DNA from: Spirochaetia bacterium UBA5763
GTDB taxonomy: Bacteria > Spirochaetota > UBA4802 > UBA5550
Direction of reading: 5' to 3'
Assembly (NCBI GenBank): GCA_002418835.1
Contig: DIEX01000011.1
Coordinates: forward strand, 40,435-104,434
DNA length: 64,000 nucleotides
Part shown: piece by piece, positions 29,299 to 45,163 of the stretch
Layout: every line of letters starts with the position of its first letter
Numbering within the stretch: the first letter of the stretch is position 1
The notes under the pieces: generated by a model
The model's input: the letters and a program-made list of their open reading frames with translations, nothing else
Database searches by the model: none
Told to the model about the DNA's origin: nothing
Program-made: the position numbers and the translations under genes

Positions 29299-30576
29299 TT
29301 AATCCTTAACTTTTACAAGGGAAGTTTTCTTCCCTTTCTTTATCTTCTTTCTGTCTAGAGGTTCACCCTCCCATGCCTTTTCAAGAACCATAAGCGCATC
29401 TTTATAATCAAGATCCTCAGGATTATAAACCATGGCTCCGTCATTCAGTGAAAGAAGCGCAATATCAGAGAGCACCTCTCTTGGCACCATCATATTGCCG
29501 TCTCTATCTACAATCTCTTTCAGACATGTGGGATGTTTCCCCCCTGTAGCTTTTCTGAGATCTGAATTCATTTCCCTTATTGCTTTGATAGTAAGAAGAG
29601 GGCGCTCCTCAGCCTTCGCGCTGTTATATGCCTCTGCTCCTTTCAGAGGGAAGAGGAGTTCACCTGTGAGGTGGCCTGTTTTATGCAGATTATACTCAAG
29701 CCCGTAGGGAAGCAGCACACTCATGCAAACGCCGTGGGGCACATGACATATTGCTCCGATAGAATGGCCTATCGCATGAATCATCCCCACCATGGAATTC
29801 GAAAAACTCATCCCTGCAAGAGCTGAAGCATTAGCAAGCGCAAGGCGCGCCTGCATATCACCCGGCTTTTTTACTCCCTGCATAATATTTTCGCTTATCA
29901 GTTTTATAGCCATTACAGCAGTTGAATCACTGAGAGGATTTTTTGAAAGGCAGGTATATGCCTCACATGCATGAGTCATGGCATCCATAGCAGTAAAAGC
30001 AGTAAGTGCTGCGGGCAGGGTCTTTGTCATCCGTGAATCGAGCACGGCAAAATCAGGGAGAAGAAAGAGAGACGGGAATAGCATCTTCACATCGCGCTCA
30101 TGATCAGCTATTACAGCAACCAGTGTCATCTCTGAGCCTGTGCCGGAAGTTGTTGGAACAGCAATTAAAGGTTTCAGCCTCCTCTTAAGTGCGCCAAACC
30201 CCACAAAATTCATGAGGTTGTCCGAATTCTCAGAAACCAGAATATTCACACCCTTGGCTGTATCAAGAACCGAACCTCCGCCTACAGCAATGATAGAATC
30301 ACACTTCGCAGCCCTGTACTTTGCAGCTATATCTTTCACTGTTTTTACATCTGAGTCAGCCGGTACATCGTCATATATCCCTCCGGCCTTCACCTTTGCT
30401 CCAAGGGCTTTCTTCACAGGCTCAATGAGCCCTGCCCCGTTAACTCCCCTGTCAGTAATAATCATCGGCTTCACGGAATTCACAGAGGCAAGCATTTCAG
30501 GCAGTTTATCAAGAGCATTATGCCCTGAAACTGTTTTTACTTTATTGCAAAATTCATAATATCCCGGTATCTGCAT
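29299..30576 (-). CDS. Iron-containing (group III) alcohol dehydrogenase
   Basis: 425 aa. Fe-ADH fold with a GGGSV(L)D-type NAD-binding loop and His-rich metal site (HAIGHSIG...HG). AAGGAG RBS. Confidence 0.85.
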   Translation of the reverse strand: MQIPGYYEFCNKVKTVSGHNALDKLPEMLASVNSVKPMIITDRGVNGAGLIEPVKKALGAKVKAGGIYDDVPADSDVKTVKDIAAKYRAAKCDSIIAVGGGSVLDTAKGVNILVSENSDNLMNFVGFGALKRRLKPLIAVPTTSGTGSEMTLVAVIADHERDVKMLFPSLFLLPDFAVLDSRMTKTLPAALTAFTAMDAMTHACEAYTCLSKNPLSDSTAVMAIKLISENIMQGVKKPGDMQARLALANASALAGMSFSNSMVGMIHAIGHSIGAICHVPHGVCMSVLLPYGLEYNLHKTGHLTGELLFPLKGAEAYNSAKAEERPLLTIKAIREMNSDLRKATGGKHPTCLKEIVDRDGNMMVPREVLSDIALLSLNDGAMVYNPEDLDYKDALMVLEKAWEGEPLDRKKIKKGKKTSLVKVKD

Positions 30577-30605
30577 TATTCGCTCCTTTATCAGTTATCA
30601 CGCCA

Positions 30606-31148
30606 TCAGAATGTAAATGTTCTTACATAGACCAGCACGCGGCCGGCATATTTTCTCATAGGACTCATCTGTGACCACTTCGGATATCTCTTCACTGCGA
30701 AAGAAGTAATAATCTTCGGGAGGAGATAAGTCTCCACAATATTCAGTATCCTGATAAAGGCCATTGTATCAGGAACATTCCCTGAAACAGCAAGCCTGTT
30801 GTTCGCGGAAGCCACACATGTGGATTCCTGGAAAGTAAACATCAGCATCGCACCTTCGATATTCTTTACTTTCATGTCGAGAGTGATCTTCTTCCCCTTA
30901 GGGTTCCATCCCATGTATTTAACCTTTCCGTTTTTATCCTTACCCACAATCATTCCGGGGCCGGAGGGGAGCACATGGAGGTGCATCATGAAATCATCAC
31001 TGAGCCGTCCGAACTCCTCTTTCACTTCGCGGTCAACACGTGACGCTGCCTGTATAGCACGCCCCACAATCCAGAGCATAACAGCAACGTATATCTTTTT
31101 TATGAGCTTCCCCCCGCTCTTAATCTCAGGGTATTTATTAATATTCAT
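30606..31148 (-). CDS. Hypothetical protein between the two Fe-ADH genes
   Basis: 180 aa with an N-terminal hydrophobic segment and no recognisable motif. Start overlaps the upstream ADH stop (ATGA). Confidence 0.4.
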   Translation of the reverse strand: MNINKYPEIKSGGKLIKKIYVAVMLWIVGRAIQAASRVDREVKEEFGRLSDDFMMHLHVLPSGPGMIVGKDKNGKVKYMGWNPKGKKITLDMKVKNIEGAMLMFTFQESTCVASANNRLAVSGNVPDTMAFIRILNIVETYLLPKIITSFAVKRYPKWSQMSPMRKYAGRVLVYVRTFTF

Positions 31149-32320
31149 TATTTTTTACCTCCGGATACTCTTTCTCCATTATATGCAGATTCGAGAATCA
31201 TCAATGCCCCGCCTTTGCCGTACTGTTTTGCAAAGCTGTCCTCAACAGCCTCCGCAGTGCTTTCAAGAATATAACGGGGAATATTCAGTTCCTTAAGCGT
31301 AACCGGTATATACTTATTCATACCTTTCACTATTTCGAAAACTGCTTCCACTCCAAGGAGCCCCCTCTCTGTTTCAGCAGCAGCGCAGTAACGATCAATC
31401 CCAGCAACCGGAAGAAGGAGCTCACCCCTCACACTTTTTTTTGTATTCTTAAGCTTATAATCAAGTGTATGCGGAAGGAGTACAGCAGCACAAAGCTCCC
31501 TGCTGTTACCTGTTCTAACCGCCAGTTCCTCAGCAAGAGCAGAACCTATACCTTCAGGGGCATTTGACCAGACGATTCCGGAGATCGCTATACCATTAGC
31601 AAGTCCCAGTACTGATTTCACGGAACCGCCATTAACTGCTGCTGCAAGATTTTCACAAATCAGCTGTATTGATGCAAATGCAAATGAATCATTCATCGGG
31701 TTGGCCGCATCTTCAGTACATGCTTCAACAGCCTCTGCCATTGCCCTCAGAGCGGGGAGTATTGTTTCAGCCTTCCCCCTTTTTTTCAGCATCCTCGGAT
31801 CAATCACAGCAATATCAGGCATAAGTTCATCAGATTCATAGATACGCCCGTCTATGACGCTCCGCGTGGAAGTCTCTCTCCCTGAAGAGTCAGACGTGGG
31901 GATAACAATAAAGGGACACAGATGCATATTATCTGGGAGTGAATCAAACTGCAGGAGATCTTCAGTTTTATGCGAAACCAGCAGGTTCAGTGCCTTTGCT
32001 GCAAATGCGCAGCTCTCACCACCGATTGATATTATAGAATCGCAGCCGCGGGCCCTGAAAAGCCGGGCTGCATCAAGCACTGTCTTTGCTGAAGTATATG
32101 CTGTTACCCCATCAAAGACCGCGCCAATCACAAGCCCTGAATCACCATATGCATCAATAAGTATCTTTACAAGGCCTTCATCAACCGATCTTTTATCGGT
32201 GATTACAAGCGGCTTCACTGCATCCATGCTCTGCAGTTCATAAGGGATATTCTCAAGAGACTTCTTCCCTGATACTATCCTTGTTTTATTAAAAAATTTA
32301 AAGTAATCCGGTATCTGCAT
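31148..32320 (-). CDS. Iron-containing alcohol dehydrogenase, paralogue 2
   Basis: 390 aa. Same N-terminus as the other ADH (MQIPDYFKFFNK vs MQIPGYYEFCNK). Located 3 nt after the AOR stop. Confidence 0.8.
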   Translation of the reverse strand: MQIPDYFKFFNKTRIVSGKKSLENIPYELQSMDAVKPLVITDKRSVDEGLVKILIDAYGDSGLVIGAVFDGVTAYTSAKTVLDAARLFRARGCDSIISIGGESCAFAAKALNLLVSHKTEDLLQFDSLPDNMHLCPFIVIPTSDSSGRETSTRSVIDGRIYESDELMPDIAVIDPRMLKKRGKAETILPALRAMAEAVEACTEDAANPMNDSFAFASIQLICENLAAAVNGGSVKSVLGLANGIAISGIVWSNAPEGIGSALAEELAVRTGNSRELCAAVLLPHTLDYKLKNTKKSVRGELLLPVAGIDRYCAAAETERGLLGVEAVFEIVKGMNKYIPVTLKELNIPRYILESTAEAVEDSFAKQYGKGGALMILESAYNGERVSGGKK

Positions 32321-32323
32321 ATA

Positions 32324-34198
32324 TCACACCGCCATTCTTTTCTTTATTTTAAGTCGTCTTACAGTTCTCTCTTTAGGGATTCCGTTTTTATCAAAACCCC
32401 GGACAAAGTAATACCTGTTAAGCATCTTTTCAAGGGGGATCGCCCTCTCCTTTGAATCGCACTTGCGGAATTCATTAAGCAGCCTGTCAGGAAGTGTATC
32501 ATCCTTGCGTGAAATCCCCTCAGCACAGTTCATCACCCTTTCAAGCACCTGCACCCTTGCACCCACACGGAGAAACGCTGTCATACCAAGCCTGTTCCCT
32601 ATTACGGCAGACCAGAGTTCAGGCCAGAGGCTCACATCAACAAATCTCATGGCAACACCTGCCATAAGGTTCATCATAAATTTAAGGACAGGCCTTGGCG
32701 AATACTTCATCAGCAGCGTTTCCAGCTCATATGGGAAGACTGTGAACACACAGGTCTGAAGGGAGTTTATGGCTGAGTAGATATCCTCCTGATACTTCAC
32801 CATTGATGCCTTACTCCTGTACGAGTAGGCATCCATGAGACCGAGATATACCTCAAGCCCGAATGCCGTTGCCGACAGGTGACATGCCCCCCTGTTTGCA
32901 ACAGCATAAGAGAGTCCCTGACCGAATGCGCCCCTGGGATCATAAGCCGCCATCTCAAGCCCCTTGACCTGAATCGCGAAATCCTCTCCGCCATATTTTT
33001 TTGAGCAGTATCTTGAACCCATTGCGAGGTCTTTCCCTATACCCTTCATATGAGCTATATCTTTTAAAACTTCGCATACACCATCTGCTGACCCGAACTT
33101 CAGATCTGACTTAAACAACCCCCGTTCTGTAGCCTCCATTGCCCATGCGATTGTTCCACCCGCTGTAATTGTATCCATGCCCATAAGTGTACATATCTCG
33201 TTGAAATCAGAAATCTTCACAGGGTCAAATATCTCAAGGTTTGACCCCATGAGCCCCACAGTTTCATATTCGGGGATCTGCCTCATCTGGCCGTTAATGT
33301 TACCCTTGTGGCCGCAGAGTATCGTACAGGGTTTGCATGTACTGTAGGAGGTCTTGAACTTCTCGGCCATCTCCTCTCCTGAAATTTTATGCGCCTCTCC
33401 GTGAGTCCCCCCTGTAAAATTTCTCACAGGGAGGAGCCCCCCTGCATTGTTGAGATTAACATTGGCATTGGTTCCGAAGTTCCTGTAGCTCCCTGCGGAG
33501 ATATCATTCCCGTTTATGTAATCTGTGGCTTTCTTCTTTGCCTTCTCAAATTTTTTCTGGTTTACAGGGAGAATTTTAAACTCCTTACCCTTCGCGGATA
33601 TTGCTTTGAGATTTTTCGAGCCCATTACTGCTCCCATCCCTCCGCGCCCCAGGAACCTGTGGCCTGAAGCGACATTGGCGTAAAGCACAAGGTTCTCTCC
33701 GGCAGGGCCGATTGCAAGCGCTCCGCCTGAATCTTTAGAAATCTCCTCCTGGGTCTTCTGTGTGTCCATTCCCCAGAGTTTTTTTGCATCCCTGAACTCA
33801 ACTCCCTTTGAATCCACATAGAGATAAACCGGGGTATTTGACTTACCTTTAACAATAAGGCCATCCCATCCTGAAGTCTTCAGAGCCATGCCGAAAGCCC
33901 CTCCGCATGAACATGATGTCATAATCCCTGTAAGAGGTGACTTCGTTACAGCTGCAAACCTCCCGGAGCATGGAGCCCCTGTGCCCAGCAGCACCCCTGT
34001 ATGTATTGCGATCATGTTATCCTCGCCAAGCGGATCAATACCCGGCTCCATTCTGTCATAAAGCATTTTCAGAGCCAGACCCTTACCGCCTAGGTAGAGC
34101 TTCAGATCCTCCTTCGGAACTTCATATACGCTGAAGCTCTTTTTTGTCAGGTTAACTTCAAGGATCCTGTTGCTTGTGCCGGTTATCTCCTGCATCAC
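32324..34198 (-). CDS. Aldehyde:ferredoxin oxidoreductase (tungsten/molybdopterin AOR family)
   Basis: 624 aa. Characteristic AOR N-terminal domain (RILEVNLTK...YLGGKGLALKML...TGVLLGTGAPCSGRFAAVTKSPLTG) and C-terminal alpha domains with Cys ligands. AGGAG RBS. Confidence 0.9.
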   Translation of the reverse strand: MMQEITGTSNRILEVNLTKKSFSVYEVPKEDLKLYLGGKGLALKMLYDRMEPGIDPLGEDNMIAIHTGVLLGTGAPCSGRFAAVTKSPLTGIMTSCSCGGAFGMALKTSGWDGLIVKGKSNTPVYLYVDSKGVEFRDAKKLWGMDTQKTQEEISKDSGGALAIGPAGENLVLYANVASGHRFLGRGGMGAVMGSKNLKAISAKGKEFKILPVNQKKFEKAKKKATDYINGNDISAGSYRNFGTNANVNLNNAGGLLPVRNFTGGTHGEAHKISGEEMAEKFKTSYSTCKPCTILCGHKGNINGQMRQIPEYETVGLMGSNLEIFDPVKISDFNEICTLMGMDTITAGGTIAWAMEATERGLFKSDLKFGSADGVCEVLKDIAHMKGIGKDLAMGSRYCSKKYGGEDFAIQVKGLEMAAYDPRGAFGQGLSYAVANRGACHLSATAFGLEVYLGLMDAYSYRSKASMVKYQEDIYSAINSLQTCVFTVFPYELETLLMKYSPRPVLKFMMNLMAGVAMRFVDVSLWPELWSAVIGNRLGMTAFLRVGARVQVLERVMNCAEGISRKDDTLPDRLLNEFRKCDSKERAIPLEKMLNRYYFVRGFDKNGIPKERTVRRLKIKKRMAV

Positions 34199-34246
34199 AT
34201 TTCTCCTTCATTTTTTATTTTTGTTTAACAGGCTTGTTGAGGAGGT

Positions 34247-34501
34247 TCATCCCCCTCCTGATATTTTAAGACATGAAATCTCTGCGGATTCCATAAATTT
34301 CGTGCGTAGATTAATTCTCTCCCCTCCTGAAAAAAAAGCGTATCCGGAAAGTTTCTGAAGCCCTGAATCAGCAATAATATTCTTCAGCTTTGTTCCCTTA
34401 TTAACTTTGATTATTACCCCGGAATTAACATTATAATCCGGAATTTTTAGCTCTTTTTCCAGACCGGAGTACAGTTTTAATGTAATTATTATATCTTCCA
34501 T
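34247..34501 (-). CDS. MoaD/ThiS-like sulfur-carrier (beta-grasp) protein ending in Gly-Gly-Gly
   Basis: 84 aa whose C-terminus FFSGGERINLRTKFMESAEISCLKISGGG matches the MoaD pattern vNGEyV.L.T.L.DGDEV.I.PPVSGG. Lies directly upstream of AOR. No good RBS. Confidence 0.5.
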   Translation of the reverse strand: MEDIIITLKLYSGLEKELKIPDYNVNSGVIIKVNKGTKLKNIIADSGLQKLSGYAFFSGGERINLRTKFMESAEISCLKISGGG

Positions 34502-34621
34502 AAAATTTTAAATGAATAATCAAATTCAGGACAGTCTATGCTATTATTAACAGAAATTCCGGAGAGATCGTCCGAATCTATATATCCGGACAGATTTTTT
34601 ATGAAAACCGGAGAAAATAAC

Positions 34622-35716
34622 TCATTTCACTGTTTTACTTTTGCGGAACTCAAGGGGGGTAATCCCTGCAATTTTTGTGAAGGCATCGTAGAAGGTGGAT
34701 TTTGAATTGAAACCTGCTTCATAGGCGATATTGAGCACAGTCCACTCTGTTTTTTCGAGAAGAAGTTCCTTGGCGTATTCAACGCGGTAGGTATTTACGA
34801 AAGTATTAAAATTCATATTAAGTCTTTCATTAAGAAGCTGCGACAGCTGGTGGTGGGTTATATCGAGGATAATTGCCACATCCTTCAGTGTAATCTCCTC
34901 ATTAAGGAAAAGCCTTTCACTCTTCATAATTGCATCAAGACTCACCATCAGAGTATCGACATCAACCCCTTTTAAAAGAGATCTCGAATAATTCCCCTTC
35001 TTTACATTCATGGAGAGGAGTTGAAGAAAATGAGGATACCTGATGCTCACAAGGTAAGTAAAGATAAAACATATTGAGATCAATATAGCGCTATACCTTA
35101 TAAAACCGCTGTCACCGGCAAGATACCCTGGAACCGCAAGGAGGGTTGACATGGTTGATCCGATAGAATAAAGAAACGTTATACATACAATATTATTCCC
35201 CTCCCCTGCTTTTAACGAAGGAACGAGTATCTTTATAAGTGCAAGATGATACATAAGCATCTGAAAAAGCCCCCCTGCCGCAGTCAGTTTGAATATCAGT
35301 ACACCTGCGGAGTTGCTGCCGGAAAAAAATTCATGAACAATGGCAATCTTGATTTCCCGGTCAAGCATTACGAGGTATGTGTCCAGTATCAGGGCAAGAA
35401 GCGCCGGAAGAAAAAAAAGATAGAACCTTCGCGGAGGCTCAACTCCGGGGAAAGCAACAACATAATAAGCATAATAGAGTACCGGCGAAAAAACAAAGAT
35501 CACCGTTGAATGATACGATATAAGCTCCGGCCTTACAAGAATCGAATGAGTAACTACAGAATAAAACTGAAGAAGTATAACCCCCATAAGGCTGAAGAGA
35601 ATAAAAAGATTAATATTCTCCCTCTTCCTCTTTTTCACAACAAGCTGCCCTGCTGCTGTGAGGAAACAGGAAAGTCCTGAAAAGAATATGAAGTTTTCTG
35701 AAATTGTAATCATCAA
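34622..35716 (-). CDS. Membrane-embedded AraC-family transcriptional regulator (polytopic N-domain plus HTH_AraC)
   Basis: 364 aa. ~250 aa with 6-7 TM helices, then the AraC HTH (LKDVAIILDITHHQLSQLLNERL...IAYEAGFNSKSTFYDAFTKIAGITPLEFRK). Confidence 0.75.
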   Translation of the reverse strand: MMITISENFIFFSGLSCFLTAAGQLVVKKRKRENINLFILFSLMGVILLQFYSVVTHSILVRPELISYHSTVIFVFSPVLYYAYYVVAFPGVEPPRRFYLFFLPALLALILDTYLVMLDREIKIAIVHEFFSGSNSAGVLIFKLTAAGGLFQMLMYHLALIKILVPSLKAGEGNNIVCITFLYSIGSTMSTLLAVPGYLAGDSGFIRYSAILISICFIFTYLVSIRYPHFLQLLSMNVKKGNYSRSLLKGVDVDTLMVSLDAIMKSERLFLNEEITLKDVAIILDITHHQLSQLLNERLNMNFNTFVNTYRVEYAKELLLEKTEWTVLNIAYEAGFNSKSTFYDAFTKIAGITPLEFRKSKTVK

Positions 35717-35888
35717 AATTCACCGCCGCTGGAAATATTACAATATGCAGCGGCTTAACTTCAAGCGTTTTCTCACTGAAGGAATAACATTTCAGGTAAA
35801 TATATTTCATTTAAGCTTTCGCAGAAAGTTGATTATCTTATAATTTGTAATTACTATAGAATAAAGATTACCGGAATGAAATTCTGAC

Positions 35889-38534
35889 ATGACAGAGATA
35901 TACCAAAAAACACCAAAAAGAGATCTCCTGCTTAAACCTCTGGTATCCATAATTCTTCTTGCGTGTATAACCATAGGCACGTTTCTTTTTCTTCATCAGC
36001 AGTGGATAGAATCTCTCTCAGAAGAGGTTGAACTTCAGCACCGTCAGAATATCTCACAGATTGCAGGGATAGCCAGAAACACAATAGAACCGATCCTCAT
36101 TCATTATCGCTTGGGTAAAATCAGCCGCAGCGATGCTGTCATGGCGATACGTAAAACAGTACGGCAGATGACTTACAAAGATCAATATGGTGATAACTAT
36201 GTTTTTATGAGCTCTTATAACGGCATAATGCTTGTACAGCCTTTCGAGCCTCACAAGGAGATGACAAATCAATGGGATCTGCGTGACAGCAACAGGGTAT
36301 ATATAATCAGGGAACTGGTTAAAGCCGCAAAGACATCCCCCGAAGGTTCCTTCGTAAAATATCATTACTACCTCCCCAGTGTACATTCTCTCCAGGAGAA
36401 ACTGGCTTATGTTATCGGTATACCTGAACTTGAATGTTATATAGGAACAGGTATGTATATGCAGAGGGCAATTCAGGAGCAGAAAGATATTCTGAAAAGA
36501 GTTAAATTCAGCTCCATCCTGTTTTTTATAGCTATACTCATCCCCCTTTCACTGGCCATCCTCTTTATACTGAACAGAAACCATCTCCTCTTAAACGAAA
36601 TCAGTTCACGCGAAGCAGCCGAAAATGAGCTGAAAAAGAGTGAAGAGAAATACCGATCGATTTTTGAAAACGTACCCCAGGGGATTTACCAGACAGAACC
36701 TGACGGGCGCTTCAGAAATGCCAATAAAACTCTGGCGAAAATGTACGGTTATTATTCAGCCGAAGATATGATTAAAAACACTTATAGTGTAGCAGAACAG
36801 TATTACGCGGAGCCATGCTACAGGGAAAACTTTCTGAAGATTATGAAAGAGAAGGGTTATGTTGAAAAATTTCTTACGCGGTTTAAAAGGATAGATGGCA
36901 CCTTTTTCTGGGGGACAAATAACGCAAGGGAAGTAAAAGATGAATCAGGGAATATTCTTTACTATGAAGGATCAATCGAAGACATAACAACTCTGATAGA
37001 AGCTGAAGCAAGGGCAAAACAGTCCGAAGAAAAATTTTCTAAAATATTTCTGACTTCACCTGAATTAGTTGCCATAACCCGCCTCCATGACGGAAAATTT
37101 ATCGATGTTAATCCCGGATTTGAAAAGATAACAGGCTGGAAAAAAGAGGAAGTCATGGGTCTGACCTCCCTTGACATTAAATTCTGGAATGATATATCGC
37201 ATAGACAGAAGATGTTTGATGAACTTAAAACTGCGGGGAGTGTGCTTTACAGGGAAGTCGCTTTCAGACGCAAAGACGGCTCAGTGGGCAACGGGATATA
37301 CTCAGCCAGGACAATTACCATAGCTGATGAAGAATGCCTTGTATTTGCCATGCACGATATTACCGAAAGAAAACAATTAGCCGAAGAACAGCGTAAACTG
37401 GAACAGCAGCTTTACCATTCACAGAAGATGGACGCCATAGGCAAGCTCGCAGGGGGAGTGGCCCACGACTTCAACAACATGCTTGCGGGTATTCAGGGCC
37501 TTGTGTCACTGATGCTTATTAAATGCTCTCCAGATGACCCAATGCATAAAAGGCTGACAAAAATCGAGGAGCAGATAAAGAGAGGCTCATCCCTCACAAA
37601 ACAGCTTCTCAACCTTGCGCATGAAAGTAAAAATGAAAAAACTACACTAGACATCAATGAACTTCTCAATAAAAGCGTTGAGATTTTCACTGAAGCAAAA
37701 AAAGGTATTGAGATCAATTTTAAACCGGGGAGCAATATTCATCCGGTTGAAGCTGACGCAGGGCAGATAGATCAGGTTATCCTCAATCTTTTCATCAACG
37801 CAGATCACGCGATGCCTGATGGAGGTTCTATTACACTTCAGACATCTGAAATTACTATAAACGAAAGTGATTCAAAAAGATTTGCACTGAAGCCCGGCGA
37901 CTATGTAAAGATATCTGTGTCTGATACCGGCACAGGGATGGACAGCGAAACAGTAAAAAAAATCTTTGAGCCATTCTTCACCACAAAAACCGAAAGAGGG
38001 GGCACAGGTCTCGGACTCGCTTCAGCATACGGGATTATACGGAACCATGAGGGGATAATCAGCGTTTACAGCGAACCGGGCCACGGAAGTACATTTAATA
38101 TTTATCTTCCTTCGTCATGCAAAGTAATTAAAAAAGAGAGGCTCCCGGCAAAGAATATTTTTTACGGCAGCGGCACCATACTTATCGTTGATGATGAACT
38201 GCCGATACTTGAAGCAGTTTCCGAGATGCTTAATATACTGGGGTACAGGGCTTTGCAGGCATCTTCCGGGGAGGATGCTGTCTCAATTTACAGGGAGGAG
38301 AAAGATACCATCAATCTGGTGATACTGGATATGATAATGCCTGTGATGAGCGGTTCTCAGGTGCTCAAGGCTCTTCGTGAGATTAATCCTGACGTCAGAG
38401 TCATACTCTCCAGCGGATACGTTATGCAGGGGAACGCGGTTAAAGTTCTTGAATATGAACACAGCAATTTTATGCAGAAACCGTACAGTATTACCGACCT
38501 CTCAAGGATTGTGCACGATGCACTGAATTCATAA
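35889..38534 (+). CDS. Hybrid sensor histidine kinase (Cache-like periplasmic domain, PAS, HisKA, HATPase, REC)
   Basis: 881 aa. TM helix, ~150 aa extracytoplasmic domain, second TM helix, PAS repeats. H-box GGVAHDFNNMLAGI, G-box GTGLGLA. Receiver ILIVDDELPILEAV. Confidence 0.85.
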   Translation: MTEIYQKTPKRDLLLKPLVSIILLACITIGTFLFLHQQWIESLSEEVELQHRQNISQIAGIARNTIEPILIHYRLGKISRSDAVMAIRKTVRQMTYKDQYGDNYVFMSSYNGIMLVQPFEPHKEMTNQWDLRDSNRVYIIRELVKAAKTSPEGSFVKYHYYLPSVHSLQEKLAYVIGIPELECYIGTGMYMQRAIQEQKDILKRVKFSSILFFIAILIPLSLAILFILNRNHLLLNEISSREAAENELKKSEEKYRSIFENVPQGIYQTEPDGRFRNANKTLAKMYGYYSAEDMIKNTYSVAEQYYAEPCYRENFLKIMKEKGYVEKFLTRFKRIDGTFFWGTNNAREVKDESGNILYYEGSIEDITTLIEAEARAKQSEEKFSKIFLTSPELVAITRLHDGKFIDVNPGFEKITGWKKEEVMGLTSLDIKFWNDISHRQKMFDELKTAGSVLYREVAFRRKDGSVGNGIYSARTITIADEECLVFAMHDITERKQLAEEQRKLEQQLYHSQKMDAIGKLAGGVAHDFNNMLAGIQGLVSLMLIKCSPDDPMHKRLTKIEEQIKRGSSLTKQLLNLAHESKNEKTTLDINELLNKSVEIFTEAKKGIEINFKPGSNIHPVEADAGQIDQVILNLFINADHAMPDGGSITLQTSEITINESDSKRFALKPGDYVKISVSDTGTGMDSETVKKIFEPFFTTKTERGGTGLGLASAYGIIRNHEGIISVYSEPGHGSTFNIYLPSSCKVIKKERLPAKNIFYGSGTILIVDDELPILEAVSEMLNILGYRALQASSGEDAVSIYREEKDTINLVILDMIMPVMSGSQVLKALREINPDVRVILSSGYVMQGNAVKVLEYEHSNFMQKPYSITDLSRIVHDALNS

Positions 38535-38582
38535 CGGGTAAAGAATAAAAATTATTTCTTTTTCATAGACTCCGCGCATACA

Positions 38583-38951
38583 TCACCCTCCTCCGCGGCT
38601 TCGAGCCATTTTTTTTAATTCAGAAGTCCGGGCTTCGGTGAGATCTTTCAGAAGAAAAAGCTGACACATGGTACGGGTAGAACCGGCTTTGCTGTTGTAA
38701 TCATGGAACTTAAGTTTAACCTCTGCATCACGGAATTTAATCCAGAGAGCCTGCGATTCCTTCAGGTTCCGGATAAATACTTTATCAGATTTATACTCTT
38801 TCAGAATCTTATTGTAGACTTCATTAATGGCTGTATCAGCAAGCTTATAATCCTGAAGCGCGGCGTAGGTCATTTCACTTTGTGTCTGGGGATAGAGATT
38901 TATTGAGAACAGAAGTGCCGTGAGAATAAATAATACTTTGTACTGTTTCAT
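38583..38951 (-). CDS. DUF1311 (LprI lysozyme-inhibitor-like) periplasmic protein
   Basis: Signal peptide. Motifs AINEVYNKILKEY, QALWIKFRDAEVKLKF and a conserved Cys (TRTMCQLFLLKDLTEARTSEL), typical of DUF1311. Confidence 0.55.
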   Translation of the reverse strand: MKQYKVLFILTALLFSINLYPQTQSEMTYAALQDYKLADTAINEVYNKILKEYKSDKVFIRNLKESQALWIKFRDAEVKLKFHDYNSKAGSTRTMCQLFLLKDLTEARTSELKKMARSRGGG

Positions 38952-38957
38952 TAAATG

Positions 38958-39425
38958 CTAATCCTCTTTTATGAATTCAAGAAACTTCACATCACATTTC
39001 TTAAAGCATACATACTGATTTAAAGAATTTCCATAATTCTGTACAGTAATTTTTCCTTCAGAGTATAGTCCCTCTATTGCCGCATTATCTCCGCTCCGTT
39101 TTGTACCTGTGAAAGCAAGATATATATTCTTCCCATCCTTAACAACAGAAAGTTTACCTGAATTTTTCACACCTTTGCCGGTTATTGAATAGGTATATCC
39201 GCTGTTATCTTTTTTAATTGTTATAACAATATCACAAACCTGATTATCAGAGAGTTTATAAACTCCGGAGTAATCAACATCAACGGATTTACTCTCAGTC
39301 ATACCGGTCTTTCCGGCTCCATTATTCCTAGAAGATTTACTGACGGCACAGGATATTACTGTCATTGTTACAACAATAACCAGAGAGACTACTGAAAGAG
39401 CTGATAAAGATTTCTGAATTTTCAT
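38958..39425 (-). CDS. Hypothetical lipoprotein
   Basis: 155 aa with a lipobox-like VISCA after the signal peptide, and two Cys pairs. Operonic with the genes on either side. Confidence 0.45.
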   Translation of the reverse strand: MKIQKSLSALSVVSLVIVVTMTVISCAVSKSSRNNGAGKTGMTESKSVDVDYSGVYKLSDNQVCDIVITIKKDNSGYTYSITGKGVKNSGKLSVVKDGKNIYLAFTGTKRSGDNAAIEGLYSEGKITVQNYGNSLNQYVCFKKCDVKFLEFIKED

Positions 39426-40075
39426 TTACTCACCCTGGTATAATCTACAAGAATATACCTGCTCTTACCTTTTTCGGTTACCTTCTGAAGTGTCGCTTTC
39501 ATTTTATCTGTTATCTGCGGGACATCATCAGGGGAAGCTTTTTTCCATACATTCTCATTTGCATGAGTGTCTCCGGCCCATCCTGAACCTGCGCTGTAGA
39601 CATTCACTGTTGCGGTGAATATATTACCGCCATTATCGTAGAGGCTCGCAATCTGCGAAAAGTCGAACTCCTCTCCGGACGCATCAGTTGTGTAATACCA
39701 TCCGTCTTTGTAGTCAATACCGCTGTCTGCAATGGACTGGTGCTTTGTAATCTTTTTACCGAAAAATTTCATTACTGTCTCATCGATGTACGAGGCCTTG
39801 ATCTTCACCTGATATTCCTTGCCGCCCTTTGTAAAACGCTTTTCATTGTTCCTGTAATTGTGATAGATACTGAATTCAATGAGTTTAATATCGCTGATTT
39901 TATCCTTCGCGAAAGGTTCGACAAAGACTTCAGAGAAATTACTGAAGAAGGTATTCAGTTCCTTTTTTTCCTTCGGGGTGAGTTTTACTTCTTTGCCGGG
40001 GGTCTGGGCGAAAGCAATTGATGCTGCGAATGCTAATATAAGTAATATACCTGCTGTATTTTTAAATTTCATCAT
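39422..40075 (-). CDS. Hypothetical secreted protein
   Basis: 217 aa with signal peptide MMKFKNTAGILLILAFAASIAFA. 4 nt overlap with the downstream lipoprotein gene. Confidence 0.45.
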   Translation of the reverse strand: MMKFKNTAGILLILAFAASIAFAQTPGKEVKLTPKEKKELNTFFSNFSEVFVEPFAKDKISDIKLIEFSIYHNYRNNEKRFTKGGKEYQVKIKASYIDETVMKFFGKKITKHQSIADSGIDYKDGWYYTTDASGEEFDFSQIASLYDNGGNIFTATVNVYSAGSGWAGDTHANENVWKKASPDDVPQITDKMKATLQKVTEKGKSRYILVDYTRVSK

Positions 40076-40178
40076 AGGTATTCTCCTTAATATTTCAAGA
40101 TCAAGACTATTGCACTTCTATGAGCATAAAAACCACTTCTGCTTACAAATAGCTACTACAAATCCATCTGGATACAGT

Positions 40179-41390
40179 TTAATACGACCGGATAGCCCTG
40201 ACAAAACGCTTATATCCGCTATAACCTTTGTCATTTGAACCCTGAACGCCGCTATTCCACTCAAAACCATGGAGCCACACCATATTGTAATTCATCTCGG
40301 AAGAACTGTAATGAAAATTCGTTGTGCCATAACCGCTGAGAAGGCCCTGTTGATACAAATTTGTGTAAACTAAATGCAGTTCTTCTTTTGACGGCAGAAA
40401 CCAGTCGCTCTTACCGTTATTGCTGTATGCTGTGCATTTTGCAGCAGCATATTCCGTCTGCAATGGATCATTTACCTGGGCAATAATCGCAATCGTGTTT
40501 GCTTTTCCCGTACCTACAGCTGCTCCTGTTGTTCCGATCAATGTACTAATTAAAGAACTGATTGTCCACATATAGTACCCCTGATCAGCCGGCGCTGCTT
40601 CAAGATACCTCCAGTCACCATTGGGATCTCCTGTTGTATACACACCCCTGTCATAAAAAACCAGTCCGCCGCCGGGTCCTGTGTAGCCGCATGTTTTTAA
40701 ACTAACTTCATCTCCATAAGCAGTGCTTCCGGTTGAACTTGTTGCATATGCCCTTACATAGTAAGTAGTACCACCTTTCACAAGACCAGTTATACTACTG
40801 GTAAAAGTTCCTGCACCTGAACCATCTGAAGTCTTTGAATCACTTATTGTCGGATTATTGCTGGTACTCCAGCAAACACCACGTGAGGTGATTGATAAAC
40901 CGGCATCATCTGTGATATTTCCACCGGCAGTCGCACTTACAGAATGAATATCTGTAACAATGGTTGTCGTTAAAGCAATTTCCCTTGGAATTGTAACAGT
41001 AAAACTGTATATAACAATACTCTTTCCGTTACCTGATACAACCTTAATCTCATATTTTATAATCTTATTTGTAGCACTCTGTAACCCGGTTACTGTTTGG
41101 GCACCTATCAAGTCAGTCCAAGCTCCTCCATCTATCCTGTAAAACATTATCGCATCAGATTTAGCCGGTACTGCAGTAATAGTAAGAGTATCTATTGTCG
41201 AACCTTCGGTAACAGTATAACTTGTCACTCCCCTATTAAAAGCAGGACTTAGACTCCCTATTGATACAGTCACATTCTCGAGTGCAGCCATCCCGACATT
41301 TATATCATTTATCATATCATCAAAACCGGCTTCACACCCTGCCAGAAAAGAAGTGAGTATTATCAGCATTATCATTTTTTTCAGTTTCAT
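40179..41390 (-). CDS. Surface lipoprotein with cadherin-like beta-sandwich and DUF1566 (Lcl C-terminal-like) domains
   Basis: Lipobox FLAGCEA. Beta-sandwich motif LSPAFNRGVTSYTV. Gly/Ser/Thr-rich repeats. C-terminal DWFLPSKEELHLVY matching the DUF1566 'WRLPT.EL' core. Confidence 0.55.
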   Translation of the reverse strand: MKLKKMIMLIILTSFLAGCEAGFDDMINDINVGMAALENVTVSIGSLSPAFNRGVTSYTVTEGSTIDTLTITAVPAKSDAIMFYRIDGGAWTDLIGAQTVTGLQSATNKIIKYEIKVVSGNGKSIVIYSFTVTIPREIALTTTIVTDIHSVSATAGGNITDDAGLSITSRGVCWSTSNNPTISDSKTSDGSGAGTFTSSITGLVKGGTTYYVRAYATSSTGSTAYGDEVSLKTCGYTGPGGGLVFYDRGVYTTGDPNGDWRYLEAAPADQGYYMWTISSLISTLIGTTGAAVGTGKANTIAIIAQVNDPLQTEYAAAKCTAYSNNGKSDWFLPSKEELHLVYTNLYQQGLLSGYGTTNFHYSSSEMNYNMVWLHGFEWNSGVQGSNDKGYSGYKRFVRAIRSY

Positions 41391-41401
41391 CTTCAGTGCT
41401 C

Positions 41402-42808
41402 CTACAATTCAAACTTTAGACCGATACTAATAAAGCCCTCATAAAACGGCTTCACGCCTGAACTCTCATATAAAAAACCATAATCCGCTCCAGTAGAGAG
41501 AAACAGATTTTCACCTTCAATAGCCAATGCAAGCCCGGCTGCAGCTACAGGGTCAATTACTGCCTTATCTTTTTCCCCTTCGAGGCCTGTATATTTTACC
41601 ATGGAATAAGACTCACCTATCTTAACAAAAGGAAAGAAGGAAAACCAGTCACCAATACCCAGATGATAACCGGCATAAACTGAAGCAGTAATCATGGTCA
41701 TACTGTCAGTATTCTCCTCATCTTTCCCTTTAAATACGAAGTATCCGGAATTAATTCCCGCTTCAAAATTCTGAAACATAAAATTGCGTAATCCGATATT
41801 TAACATCCCGCCGTACCCGGGACCGAACATCTCACCCAAATCCCCTGTAAGGACAAAAGTAGATGGCGCTACTGACACAACAAGCTGCATCGGCATAGAC
41901 ACCCTTACTTTCTCTGATTCACTCCCAAGGTCATCCTCAGCAGTAATTTCAATTTTATAAACAGAAACATTATCAGGAACTGTGTACTCAGGCCTTTTCA
42001 CAGTTGCAATTTTACTTTTGCCCTTGTCATCAATATTGTATATATTATATACTTTAACTTTGCCATCATTGTCTTTAGATTCATCCCATCTTAAACTGAT
42101 CCTGCCATTATCGGACTCGCGTGTAATCCCCTTCGGTTTATCCGGCGGGAGGTTTTTTGTTTTAAACTTCAGTTCATTACTGGGTTCAGATTCATTCCCC
42201 GCTGAATCAATTGCTGTTACAATCATGAAGTATTCAGTATTGCTGCTGAGATTTTTTATAGTAAGTGAAGTTCCGCCGGTTGTATCTGCGGGTTCATATT
42301 TATCTGACTGTTTCTTCTTTATAAAAAGTTTGTACTTCTTCACAGGATCATAAGGAGGGAGCCACTTAACGCTTACCCTGTCGGTTCCGATCTCACCATC
42401 AGGCTGAAGTCCTGAAGGATTCTTCTCTGCCATAAAGAGTACTTCATTTCTTTTAAGTGTAAACTCTTCAGGGCTGTACAGCTCCTTCCTGAATGTGTAG
42501 CTCTCCCTGTCCTCATCAACAAGGTGTGCAACTATACCCTTCCCGTCCCTCTTCTGAACATATATCTTCCCGAGTTTAAGTTCGGTATAGAGTATGCGCA
42601 TAATATCGGTGCGTTTAATCTGCCTGCTCATTTTTTCATGAGTGCGTATTGTAACTGAACCCGCACCATCCGAGATTATGCTTCCTTCAACAATCGATCC
42701 GTCTTTTAAGAATACAGCTTCAGCCACAAGAGGGGTTTCCTGTAGGACAGCTAAACACACAGATGCTGCAACCAGCACAGAGAGCCTGATAAACTTTCCC
42801 GGTTTCAT
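41402..42808 (-). CDS. Secreted FN3-repeat protein with a C-terminal beta-barrel-like domain (putative outer-membrane-anchored surface protein)
   Basis: Signal peptide, two fibronectin-III-like modules (…TAIDSAGNESEPSNELKFKT), then an aromatic-rich segment of alternating hydrophobic residues ending GFISIGLKFEL. Confidence 0.5.
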   Translation of the reverse strand: MKPGKFIRLSVLVAASVCLAVLQETPLVAEAVFLKDGSIVEGSIISDGAGSVTIRTHEKMSRQIKRTDIMRILYTELKLGKIYVQKRDGKGIVAHLVDEDRESYTFRKELYSPEEFTLKRNEVLFMAEKNPSGLQPDGEIGTDRVSVKWLPPYDPVKKYKLFIKKKQSDKYEPADTTGGTSLTIKNLSSNTEYFMIVTAIDSAGNESEPSNELKFKTKNLPPDKPKGITRESDNGRISLRWDESKDNDGKVKVYNIYNIDDKGKSKIATVKRPEYTVPDNVSVYKIEITAEDDLGSESEKVRVSMPMQLVVSVAPSTFVLTGDLGEMFGPGYGGMLNIGLRNFMFQNFEAGINSGYFVFKGKDEENTDSMTMITASVYAGYHLGIGDWFSFFPFVKIGESYSMVKYTGLEGEKDKAVIDPVAAAGLALAIEGENLFLSTGADYGFLYESSGVKPFYEGFISIGLKFEL

Positions 42809-43091
42809 AATTACTTCCTTAAAAACTTTTCTTTATAAAAAAGCCGATAATAACTTTTTCATGAACACTAATGATGCACCAATTCCATATATAGAACACA
42901 AATAAGCATACACACACTTCAATCGAGCATCGAAGACAATAATCTTTTGATTTATACTATGATTTAATAATTCCCGTCGACCAGATTTATAAATATAGAC
43001 GCATCAGAATTTTGCACCTGCACCGATTATTGGATAGACAGGATGTTGATGTCTTATAGAAGTGATGAAACTATGAATTATTAATATCCGA

Positions 43092-44189
43092 ATGATTGAG
43101 AGCATAATAAAATACAGTGAGTTTACATGCGGCATAGTACTGTCGCTCTTTGCTCTTATACAGATTACATATAAAAACCGGCAGTTCATAAACTTCAATA
43201 TAGCGGGACTCTACTTCTGCCTCTCCTATGTAATACTTTCGCTCTGGACATTTAAATCAGGAATCATATTTTATGTACCATGGCTTATGTATACAGATAT
43301 TACAGCAGCTTATGCTATCGGCCCGTTTGTTTATTTTTACCTGAGAACAGTGATGGGGTATAAAACAAAGATCGACCGCATGTATCTCTTTCACTTTATC
43401 CCGGCGTTTGTTGTGTTTGCACTGATTGTAACCAACAACATTGTTAACGATTCCTTCATGTTGTATTACAGAGCAAATCCTTCAGCATACCCTGTATACA
43501 ACCTGAACCCTGTTGTGAGAGCTATTGATTTTATATCAAATTTTTACATGTTAACCTATCTCATAGCAGCAACAAAAAATATACGTATATACCTGAGAAA
43601 AGGAAACCATAAACAGGCGGATGAACTGCAAACCTTATTATATTACATGTTCTTCATTCTCCTGTTCAGCCTGATGATGATTACTGCAAACATAACAGGG
43701 AGCAGCGTGCTCAATATCACAGCAATATACCTCCTGACTCTTGCGGGCTTGTGGTACTTCATATTCAGTTTCCGCAACCCGGAGTTCACTCAGAAGGCGA
43801 TTAAAGAAGCGAAAATTTTAAGATATGAAAACTCAATGCTCAGCGGGGTTGATGCAGATATTGTACTCCAGAGGCTTGACGACCTTATGAATGAAGAGAG
43901 AATATACATAGACTACGAACTGACGCTACCCCGGCTAAGCGAATACCTGATGGTCACACCACACCAGATGTCGAAGATCCTGAACTCCAGGCGTAAAATG
44001 AACTTCAGAACACTGGTAAACTCCTACAGGGTAAAGGAATCGATTATACAGATGGCTGAACACCCCGAAAAGACCATACTTGAAATCGCCCTTGCAAGCG
44101 GATTCAACTCCAAGTCTTCATTCAACTCTGTGTTCCTTAAATCAACAGGGAAAACACCGAGTGATTACAGGGAGAGTCTGAAAGAGTAA
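43092..44189 (+). CDS. Membrane-embedded AraC-family transcriptional regulator, paralogue of 34622-35716
   Basis: 365 aa with the same architecture (polytopic N-domain, GVDADIV linker, HTH_AraC LTLPRLSEYLMVTPHQMSKIL...ASGFNSKSSFNSVFLKSTGKTPSDYRE). Confidence 0.75.
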   Translation: MIESIIKYSEFTCGIVLSLFALIQITYKNRQFINFNIAGLYFCLSYVILSLWTFKSGIIFYVPWLMYTDITAAYAIGPFVYFYLRTVMGYKTKIDRMYLFHFIPAFVVFALIVTNNIVNDSFMLYYRANPSAYPVYNLNPVVRAIDFISNFYMLTYLIAATKNIRIYLRKGNHKQADELQTLLYYMFFILLFSLMMITANITGSSVLNITAIYLLTLAGLWYFIFSFRNPEFTQKAIKEAKILRYENSMLSGVDADIVLQRLDDLMNEERIYIDYELTLPRLSEYLMVTPHQMSKILNSRRKMNFRTLVNSYRVKESIIQMAEHPEKTILEIALASGFNSKSSFNSVFLKSTGKTPSDYRESLKE

Positions 44190-44260: not shown

Positions 44261-45163
44261 TTATCTTACGTCTGTTCTTCTTACATCCTTTGCTTTGATC
44301 GCAACTGGCCCGTTTGTTGTAAGCACCCTGTAGCTTTCTCCGCGTGAAACAATAATTCCCTGTATGGTTCTTCCGCTGTAAAGAGTAATCAAATCAATCC
44401 TGCCGTATTTAGCTTTCATCTCAGCGGGAGTGAGACCGGTCTCTTCTTTAATCTGCTCGTTAATGTCCACTTCTGTTTTCTCTATCTCATTAAATATCTG
44501 TTTCAGTTCATCCGGAGTCTTTTTTTCAACTTCCGGAACCACCGGGGTCTTCTCAAGTTTTGAAAGCTCAAGAGTTTCAACTTTATTTATTTCACGCAGT
44601 TCAACAAACTCTTTCTCAGTTTCAACAACGGCGCTGTTACCCTTCTCTACCAGCTTCTCGTCTGCGGCACCGGCAGTTCTCTTCACATTTACTACCCCTT
44701 TACCAACAGCAACAATCGATTTAGTCCCTGTAAACTCTGTTAAAAACTGTGTTCCCCTGACAGACGCAACAGCTGTCGGGGTCTTTACTGCATAACCGTG
44801 ACCCTTCTGAAGTTTCTCAACACTTGAGAGCACCCTCCCTTTATTAAGCGAAATCTCCCGTTTAGTTATATCAGTTATTGATGACATTACGGCTTCTGTG
44901 TTAGATTCAAATCTTATTACAAGGCCGTCACTGCTTTGAAGTATCAGTGCTGACTTCTCCCCGATTGTAAAAATATCCCCTTCCTGTGCTACGCTCTTTA
45001 CCTCTACCGGAACCGGTGTACCGCTTCTCGTCTGTGTCACAGAACCGGTAAAAAAAGATACAAAAATCTCCTTCTTTGTCTCTTTTGCGCATGAGATAAA
45101 CATTGCTGCGGCAGTTACCGCGCCAATAAGAACTGCCCTTTTCAATATTTTTTTTGAATTCAT
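44261..45163 (-). CDS. FecR-domain lipoprotein
   Basis: Signal peptide/lipobox FISCA. FecR-like central region (GDIFTIGEKSALILQSSDGLVIRF...GHGYAVKTPTAVASVRGTQF). Confidence 0.55.
   Translation of the reverse strand: MNSKKILKRAVLIGAVTAAAMFISCAKETKKEIFVSFFTGSVTQTRSGTPVPVEVKSVAQEGDIFTIGEKSALILQSSDGLVIRFESNTEAVMSSITDITKREISLNKGRVLSSVEKLQKGHGYAVKTPTAVASVRGTQFLTEFTGTKSIVAVGKGVVNVKRTAGAADEKLVEKGNSAVVETEKEFVELREINKVETLELSKLEKTPVVPEVEKKTPDELKQIFNEIEKTEVDINEQIKEETGLTPAEMKAKYGRIDLITLYSGRTIQGIIVSRGESYRVLTTNGPVAIKAKDVRRTDVR

Follow-up and report, generated by a model that had tools for sequence, protein, structure and literature searches.

The 64 kb window analysed here (Spirochaetia bacterium UBA5763, contig DIEX01000011.1, positions 40,435 to 104,434) encodes two paralogous regulators, AraC1 and AraC2, in which a seven-helix transmembrane (TM) domain is joined to an AraC-type DNA-binding domain. 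Between them lies a block of about 7.3 kb with the gene of a hybrid histidine kinase and five genes for exported proteins. The region is probably composed of two independent one-component modules and an unrelated hybrid kinase rather than of one island bracketed by its regulators; the links between regulators and targets were inferred from synteny and from cis-elements. Judged from its neighbourhood in relatives, AraC1 most likely regulates an operon of aldehyde:ferredoxin oxidoreductase (AOR) and Fe-ADH genes on its other side, and the candidate target of AraC2 is the divergent operon that begins with the gene of an FN3 beta-barrel protein (FN3bb). The architecture of the proteins, the synteny, and the conserved cis-elements with their positions were observed directly. 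The features of the two modules are as follows (coordinates of the window; HTH, helix-turn-helix).

34622-35713, minus strand: AraC1, 363 aa, seven TM helices and AraC-type HTH domain (HTH_18 at residues 282-359, E=2.4e-19)
29299-34501, minus strand: candidate AraC1 target operon, outside the span of the first-pass annotation; 84-aa protein (p84, ends in GGG), AOR, Fe-ADH, 180-aa protein, Fe-ADH
34570-34591, minus strand: AraC1-type palindrome GTCCGGATATATAGATTCGGAC, candidate operator of the p84-AOR promoter (34565-34593 with flanks)
43092-44189, plus strand: AraC2, 365 aa, seven TM helices and AraC-type HTH domain (HTH_18, E=5.3e-15)
42976-43000, plus strand: AraC2-type element GTCGACCAGATTTATAAATATAGAC, candidate operator in the 283-nt divergent intergenic region

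An open reading frame (ORF) check confirmed the positions that the first-pass annotation of this DNA had given to both regulator genes, the Cache hybrid kinase gene and the five exported-protein genes. AraC1 most likely starts at an ATG one codon inside the TTG-initiated ORF: the 363-aa product is recorded in public assemblies, and a look-up of the TTG-start product in public assemblies gave no match. The two regulators were indeed paralogues, as had been proposed, and aligned end to end with 28% identity (E=3e-36).

Synteny and candidate operators

Eleven relatives of AraC1 with 34-82% identity were compared. In nine of them (82, 74, 64, 53, 53, 52, 36, 36, and 36% identity), the regulator gene was followed in the same direction by AOR, Fe-ADH, the 180-aa protein gene, and a second Fe-ADH, which does not support the earlier proposal that the two regulators jointly serve the unit between them. 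Pfam analysis identified AFOR_N and AFOR_C (E=1e-73 and 1e-110) in AOR, and Fe-ADH twice. The p84 gene preceded AOR in six of the nine operons; in L009 it was found on the opposite strand, after the operon. A gene for an AdhE-type Aldedh and Fe-ADH fusion followed the AraC1-type gene of the 34% relative (L013), and neither the AOR operon nor an AdhE-type gene was found downstream in the 40% relative (L012). The upstream neighbours of AraC1-type genes varied and were transposases with a C11 peptidase, PrmA, or the kinase. Only the 74% and 82% relatives had the kinase gene beside AraC1; it was absent from this position in the 64%, 53%, and 52% relatives. Five AraC2-type genes (72, 68, 66, 65, and 55% identity) in four distinct loci all adjoined a gene for an FN3bb protein of about 470 aa, four of them divergently and one convergently.

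Comparison of the whole block showed that its content differs among relatives, as the first-pass annotation had expected. In the 82% relative, the order was AOR operon, AraC1, kinase, Transposase_31, LprI, a fused p155/p217, three Big_2 proteins, an FN3 paralogue, and AraC2; the flanks were syntenic and the middle was exchanged, with the three Big_2 proteins in place of the 403-aa lipoprotein, an FN3bb gene that was only a 33% paralogue, and an inserted transposase. The complete genome GCA_942493035 has its AraC1 module at 1.86 Mb and its AraC2 module at 4.89 Mb. On the genomes compared, the juxtaposition of both modules is specific to the lineage of the window because the modules are about 3 Mb apart in that genome and the kinase adjoins AraC1 only at 74% identity or above. 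Both genes point outward from the block, as had been noted, because each regulator faces or precedes its own putative target. The idea of an accessory surface island held in that the locus encodes variable envelope proteins, which would belong to AraC2 only, and failed in that it is not a single unit bracketed by two regulators. Since the block content was variable and its exported proteins had no housekeeping homologues, the region did not correspond to a block that is conserved everywhere and has housekeeping functions.

The evidence on a horizontally acquired genomic island was mixed. In the 82% relative, cargo genes were swapped and a transposase was present. The GC content of the block was 0.39-0.43, compared with a mean of about 0.43 for the window, so that the deviation sought in the first-pass annotation was only a mild AT shift of about one standard deviation. 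No tRNA genes were found in the 64 kb window, and Pfam detected no integrase or transposase domains in the scanned proteins of 34.6-47.4 kb. No Rfam family was matched, and no defence-system model was matched beyond one weak receiver-domain match.

The AraC1-type pattern GTCCGGA-N8-TTCGGAC had its sole zero-mismatch match within the window at 34570-34591, in the 120-nt gap that follows AraC1, and the same site was the top match of the position weight matrix (PWM), with a score of 46.5 versus 19.9 for the next. The latter site (60787-60815) is within a 942-aa ORF and was taken as a chance match. Besides the window, the palindrome appeared once in each of eight orthologous loci (L003/4, L005-L008, L011, and L091), 46-138 nt upstream of the p84 or AOR start and at 66-68 nt in seven loci, and it carried a conserved CGATCT extension. 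It stayed with p84 when AraC1 was apart, at 2.3 kb in L006 and 0.8 kb in L008. No element of either type was found in the AraC1-kinase intergenic region, and strict palindromes with at most two mismatches were not enriched across the window (3 found versus 1.9 expected).

For AraC2, a 25-nt consensus, GTCGTCCAGATTTATAAAnnTGGAC, was shared by eight copies, which are spread over seven intergenic regions in five loci and all have one orientation. The element preceded each AraC2-type start by about 65-115 nt, with its TCG end always toward the divergent gene. A second copy was present upstream of an FN3bb gene in L086 and L025, and for a third FN3bb gene, in L087, a one-mismatch palindrome was found 104 nt upstream. 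The element of the window was the only strong match of the AraC2-type PWM (37.2), and the best other site (18.0) was the candidate AraC1 operator. The two element types could be aligned with each other, and the main difference was G versus A at one half-site position, as expected of paralogous regulators with diverged specificity. Within 600 nt of regulator genes, the palindrome density was 16 per 100 kb versus 2.1 elsewhere in the loci, a suggestive and partly circular comparison in which most of the signal stems from the clades that defined the pattern.

Similar palindromes were seen near distant members of the family. In L063 (1954-1997, Heliomicrobium metagenome-assembled genome, MAG) and L071 (10390-10411, Leptospirales MAG), GTCCGAA-N8-TTCGGAC-type palindromes were located 8-30 nt past stop codons; in L064 (10428-10449, Clostridia MAG), one was located just after the AraC match, and a similar one-mismatch palindrome followed the match in L080 (Spirochaetaceae). 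The loci L063, L064, and L071 were retrieved only through recognition-helix motifs, and the palindromes hint at a family-wide operator type.

Around the AOR operon, three further observations were made. The 84-aa protein (34247-34501), with its GGG end, is a possible MoaD/ThiS-like carrier in pterin cofactor synthesis, although Pfam gave this no support. The 180-aa protein between the Fe-ADH genes (30606-31148) was conserved and matched no family. A multi-PAS histidine kinase of about 1,080 aa (approximately 26300-29280, plus strand) converges on the end of the operon; such a kinase was also present in the 82% relative (L091 16465-19752), and L005 has an SBP_bac_3-type kinase there instead.

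Regulator architecture, proposed mechanism and alternatives

The HTH_18/HTH_AraC domain was confined by Pfam to the last ~85 residues of both regulators, with TM helices before it, so that the membrane-embedded architecture described in the first-pass annotation is real. Of the six to seven helices given there, seven were borne out and six were not. The AlphaFold2 model of AraC1 (mean pLDDT 84.9, from a 37-sequence alignment) placed TM helices at residues 2-24, 31-54, 68-87, 97-115, 136-168, 173-199, and 202-225, with a short helix in the loop between helices 4 and 5 and a low-confidence stretch at 232-243, followed by the AraC domain. Hydropathy peaks agreed with the TM segments in the regulators. 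Across the alignment, lysine and arginine were frequent after TM7 and in loops 1-2 and 3-4, whereas loops 2-3 and 6-7 and the N-terminus had almost none, a distribution that fits a predicted N-out/C-in topology. P77 and P103 were invariant in the family alignment, and Q23, Q49, H68, Y80, D111, Y155, and R225 were kept in at least 85% of the aligned sequences; all of the latter but R225 are conserved polar positions within TM helices. The TM domains of AraC1 and AraC2 were only about 20% identical, yet the conserved polar positions and the prolines were retained. The linker between the TM and AraC domains (RYPxFLQ...SLLKGxDxDxLM) was kept between the two regulators, as had been claimed, with the consensus SLLKGxDxDxLM. 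Both proteins have the C-terminal DNA-binding domain of about 100 aa with two HTH motifs (PF12833/PF00165) that defines the AraC/XylS family, and both combine a DNA-binding domain with at least one TM region in a single protein, which is the definition of a transmembrane transcription regulator (TTR) (PMC10269533).

In the mechanism proposed here, the seven-helix domain would sense a signal that partitions into the membrane and relay it through the linker to the AraC domain, which may act while still tethered, by analogy with ToxR, CadC, and BcrR. AraC1 would control the co-directional p84-AOR-Fe-ADH operon through GTCCGGA-N8-TTCGGAC at 34570-34591, and AraC2 would control the divergent FN3bb operon, and probably itself, through the element at 42976-43000. 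A TAATAAT hexamer resembling a -10 element follows 20 nt beyond the AraC1-type site in the window, so that the site would overlap a weak -35 element in the class II geometry of AraC/XylS activators; this is a reading of the sequence and not a statistical result. The protein that binds each element, the sign of regulation, the signal, and the action at the membrane are what we infer from the sequences.

Several points weigh against these assignments. The AraC1-type palindrome was not evident in two of the three loci with 36% identity (L009 and L010). The AraC2 element of the window is degenerate, with three mismatches to the strict palindrome, and a 7-8-7 palindrome is unlike the classic asymmetric site of about 20 bp that is bound by a monomeric AraC DNA-binding domain. 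Promoter-like hexamers in sigma-70 scans were not above chance in the AT-rich DNA of the window. Many FN3bb paralogues, also in L089, have no adjacent AraC gene. Simple read-through co-transcription from AraC1 into its operon could occur, since the 120-nt gap between them has no strong terminator. The likely signal of AraC1, a lipophilic aldehyde or alcohol or the resulting membrane stress, was deduced from gene context only, and the cis-elements could belong to another regulator. If the palindromes were the sites of another regulator, structural RNA, or terminator-like hairpins, the synteny would reflect co-inheritance and the true targets of the seven-helix regulators would be elsewhere, which we consider unlikely. 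The arms can form a 7-bp hairpin, a T-run follows several AraC2-type copies (L086b, L025a, and L087b), the terminator scan reported a weak hairpin overlapping the AraC1-type site, and such palindromes are atypical of AraC-family sites. Against this, the copies in the window and in L089 kept the palindrome without a T-run, the elements precede genes, in divergent or promoter regions into which no gene reads, and the AraC1-type copy tracked p84 and not the 3' end of AraC1. The class of element also switched with the regulator paralogue, the Rfam scan was negative, the palindromes in L063, L071, and L064 (GTCC..A-N8-T..GGAC) were of similar form, and the density near regulators was raised, mostly in the pattern-defining clades. 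Less probable still is that the whole block is one accessory surface island, set jointly by both AraC paralogues and the internal Cache kinase. The order AraC1, kinase, LprI/p155/p217, adhesin, FN3bb, and AraC2 was kept in the 82% relative and the kinase-AraC1 pair in the 74% relative, and the variable cargo and the transposase of the 82% relative would suit an island; at 52-64% identity, in contrast, AraC1 kept the AOR operon and lost the kinase and the surface genes, and the separation in GCA_942493035 speaks against a joint unit as well. The AraC1-type palindrome is on the AOR side, with neither element between AraC1 and the kinase, and the kinase gene converges on the exported-protein operon and shares no promoter with it. 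Two separate modules thus account better for the region than one bracketed island, and for annotation the lesson is that adjacent paralogous regulators do not define a unit.

The targets could also be as proposed and the seven-helix domain have no specific ligand, if it responded to a bulk property of the membrane (fluidity, thickness, solvent or aldehyde damage) or served as an anchor under the control of proteolysis or a partner protein. This alternative is improbable to about the same degree as that of non-operator palindromes. The loops are short and no extracytoplasmic domain was found in the family, the membrane itself has been proposed as a signal for TTRs (PMC10269533), and the family has targets of many kinds (outer-membrane receptors, beta-lactamase-like proteins, acyl-CoA dehydrogenases, and efflux proteins). 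The polar residues within the membrane (Q49, H68, Y80, D111, and Y155) and the invariant P77 and P103, in contrast, exceed the needs of an anchor, and their retention in TM domains of such low identity fits different ligands for the two paralogues. More speculatively, and with considerable doubt on our side, the family may consist of GPCR/rhodopsin-like bundles (GPCR, G-protein-coupled receptor) in which a lipophilic small molecule, bound within the membrane, would act as the switch of a tethered AraC domain on GTCCxxA-N8-TxxGGAC, with an aldehyde or alcohol as the ligand of AraC1; the GPCR resemblance of the seven-helix domain is generic. If this were true, the paralogue-specific operators would make up a sensor-operator-regulon triplet in uncultured Spirochaetota.

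Exported proteins and the hybrid kinase

The genes between the two regulators are the following.

41402-42808, minus strand: FN3bb, 468 aa, first gene of the operon; signal peptide, two small beta domains, two FN3 domains, C-terminal 8-strand OmpA-like barrel
40179-41390, minus strand: variable adhesin-like cargo lipoprotein, 403 aa, LAGC lipobox; Cadherin-like beta sandwich and weak C-terminal Lcl_C/DUF1566
38583-40075, minus strand: operon tail with p217 (signal peptide, no family), p155 (VISC lipoprotein), and LprI/DUF1311
35889-38534, plus strand: hybrid histidine kinase, divergent from AraC1; sCache_2 (E=1.3e-32), two PAS, HisKA, HATPase_c (E=3.6e-22), Response_reg (E=3.3e-20)

Pfam analysis of FN3bb gave fn3 (E=3.9e-14) and a weak sub-threshold match to OMP_b-brl, and its C-terminus forms a closed barrel of eight antiparallel strands similar to solved OmpA-like members. 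The description of an FN3 beta-barrel protein was borne out. By analogy with 8-strand OmpA-type barrels, of which both ends face the periplasm, its FN3 domains are probably periplasmic and not displayed on the surface. Compared with the OmpA, NspA, and OmpW barrels, that of FN3bb is C-terminal and is preceded by the two small beta domains and the two FN3 domains. FN3bb differs from OmpA in that it has no OmpA-C peptidoglycan-binding domain and heads a cassette with a variable lipoprotein. In that lipoprotein, the Cadherin-like domain of the first-pass annotation was above the cut-off (28.1 bits), whereas DUF1566 was a weak match (Lcl_C/DUF1566, 21.3 bits, below the cut-off). LprI/DUF1311 was identified with E=2.4e-17 and has a signal peptide. 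The exported proteins had no NCBIfam names, and p217 and the Cadherin-like lipoprotein had no sequence relatives in the PDB, in line with the first-pass annotation, which had listed the exported proteins as being of unknown function. At three other loci the operon ends with the p217 and p155 pair (67% and 57% identity in L087, 77% and 70% in L089, 62% and 57% in L006), followed in L089 by LprI (79%).

The FN3bb family is multi-copy: L089 has three members in a stretch of 21 kb, and a single contig of 4.27 Mb has at least three. The protein after FN3bb differed from copy to copy: Cadherin-like/Lcl_C in the window, Lcl_C alone in L092 and L093, Big_2/Flg_new/Lcl_C, and in further relatives Lactonase-like, LRR_5, and a 993-aa protein. 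FN3bb recurs as a two-gene cassette with a variable exported protein, often of the Lcl_C/DUF1566 type. Spirochaetota genomes have several such cassettes each, some accompanied by an AraC gene and some not (for example, L092 7001-9405, L093 7001-9091, and L089 8250-21098). The cassette gives the impression of an outer-membrane partner that is dedicated to lipoproteins, and it is a second and unexplained envelope feature of Spirochaetota. Transposases (Transposase_31, rve, and DDE_Tnp_1) edge surface cassettes or adjoin the AraC1 module in L091 (5978-6895), L092 (9639-10520), and L003 (6795-9390); those at the cassette edges fit cassette turnover.

The first small beta domain of FN3bb had a sub-threshold NCBIfam match to the N-terminal domain of Leptospira LA_0442/LA_0875. 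Downstream of AraC2, a FecR-domain protein (44261-45163) has a lipoprotein-like N-terminus (FISC), and its C-terminal ~45 residues resemble residues ~30-75 of FN3bb. In L089, an additional cassette of FN3bb and the 993-aa protein comes after the orthologous FecR gene, while a second FecR gene and a gene for an extracytoplasmic function (ECF) sigma factor come before it; all of these are absent from the window.

The hybrid histidine kinase with a Cache domain was confirmed by its Pfam domains (sCache_2, two PAS, HisKA, HATPase_c, and Response_reg), which agree with the definition of that class, and two TM segments flank the Cache domain. Farther along, the segment 47001-48000 had the lowest GC of the window (0.337) and is intergenic, upstream of a chemoreceptor gene.

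Family extent and comparison with known systems

The TM part of the regulators is covered by no Pfam or NCBIfam model. At E<=1, Pfam returned for the TM region of AraC1 only a chance-level match to DUF1689 (E=0.23) and for that of AraC2 nothing, and no PDB sequence matched the TM domain even at E<=10. A TM-only profile was searched against 1.84 billion cluster representatives (50% identity clusters), and 1,596 representatives were matched at E<=1e-3 and 424 at E<=1e-10. The best 150 matches were almost all 340-400 aa or shorter apparent fragments, all 10 sampled matches had a C-terminal HTH_18, and no other output domain was fused to the TM module among the best 150 matches or the 10 that were scanned for domains. 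From the lengths and the sampled HTH_18 domains, the TM module is therefore read as a dedicated partner of the AraC domain. Genome matches to the family, with 3-8 TM segments predicted by hydropathy, were found in Spirochaetota, Leptospira, Acidobacteriota, Calditrichia, Ignavibacteria, Bacteroidota (Chryseobacterium, Chitinophaga, Dyadobacter, and Saprospiraceae), and others. The closest named relatives were Spirochaetota MAGs (NCBI), further matches came from JGI and ENA metagenome assemblies, and the window sequence itself was matched by a 146.8-kb metagenome contig of the ENA assembly ERZ27315046. Downstream of 48 other family members, the genes encoded outer-membrane barrel or TonB-type receptors (12), beta-lactamase-like proteins (4), acyl-CoA dehydrogenases (4), efflux proteins (3), acyl-CoA ligases, and fatty-acyl-reductase-like proteins. 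This diversity is compatible with lipophilic signals and is not proof of them.

Such regulators had been called unusual, which was an overstatement. In the published census of 50,302 TTRs, HTH_18 was the commonest DNA-binding domain (16,725, or 33%; PMC10269533 Table S1A); thus the architecture is already catalogued and not rare. TTRs are enriched in Spirochaetota, Leptospirae, Bacteroidota, and Acidobacteriae, with an average of at least 3 TM regions per TTR in Leptospirae (PMC10269533). In the literature searched, no characterised member of the 7TM-AraC family was found, nor a signal or an operator, and no study of another membrane-embedded AraC regulator of this type. What is new here are the candidate operators and regulons of a kind of regulator that is known but uncharacterised. 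With two paralogues of the largest TTR class in the census, each with a candidate regulon and operator, the window makes a compact test case for the control that a polytopic membrane domain exerts on an AraC DNA-binding domain, and for the question of which signal induces tungsten/molybdenum-type aldehyde oxidoreductase operons in anaerobic Spirochaetota.

AraC1 and AraC2 share with the HTH_18 TTRs of the census a DNA-binding domain and TM regions in one polypeptide, and the phyla enriched there are those in which the 7TM-AraC family was found. The census counts architectures only and defines no 7TM sensor family, targets, or operators. About 8% of all TTRs, and about 72% in the genus Bacteroides, are hybrid kinase-receiver fusions (PMC10269533), which AraC1 and AraC2 are not: a hybrid two-component system of the Bacteroides type was rejected for these proteins of 363-365 aa, in which Pfam found only HTH_18/HTH_AraC. 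A 7TMR-DISM receptor was rejected as well, with no Pfam match in the TM region and loops too short for an extracytoplasmic domain. The PocR and FeaR models of NCBIfam gave only HTH-level matches to the regulators, within the DNA-binding domain and far below the family cut-offs.

ToxR, TcpP, and CadC bind DNA while membrane-tethered and both sense and respond in one protein, as is proposed for AraC1 and AraC2. They consist of an N-terminal winged-helix domain of the OmpR type, one TM helix, and a periplasmic C-terminal sensor, whereas AraC1 and AraC2 have the reversed order, seven helices, almost no periplasmic mass, and an AraC-type DNA-binding domain. YqhC, FeaR, PocR, and EutR are AraC-type activators encoded beside aldehyde or alcohol redox genes, and they are soluble proteins with soluble N-terminal ligand-binding domains. 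BcrR of Enterococcus faecalis resembles AraC1 and AraC2, as pictured here, in that a membrane domain of several helices, the presumed direct sensor of a lipophilic compound, is combined with an HTH that activates the adjacent operon. Unlike AraC1 and AraC2, BcrR has an N-terminal XRE-type HTH and four TM helices.

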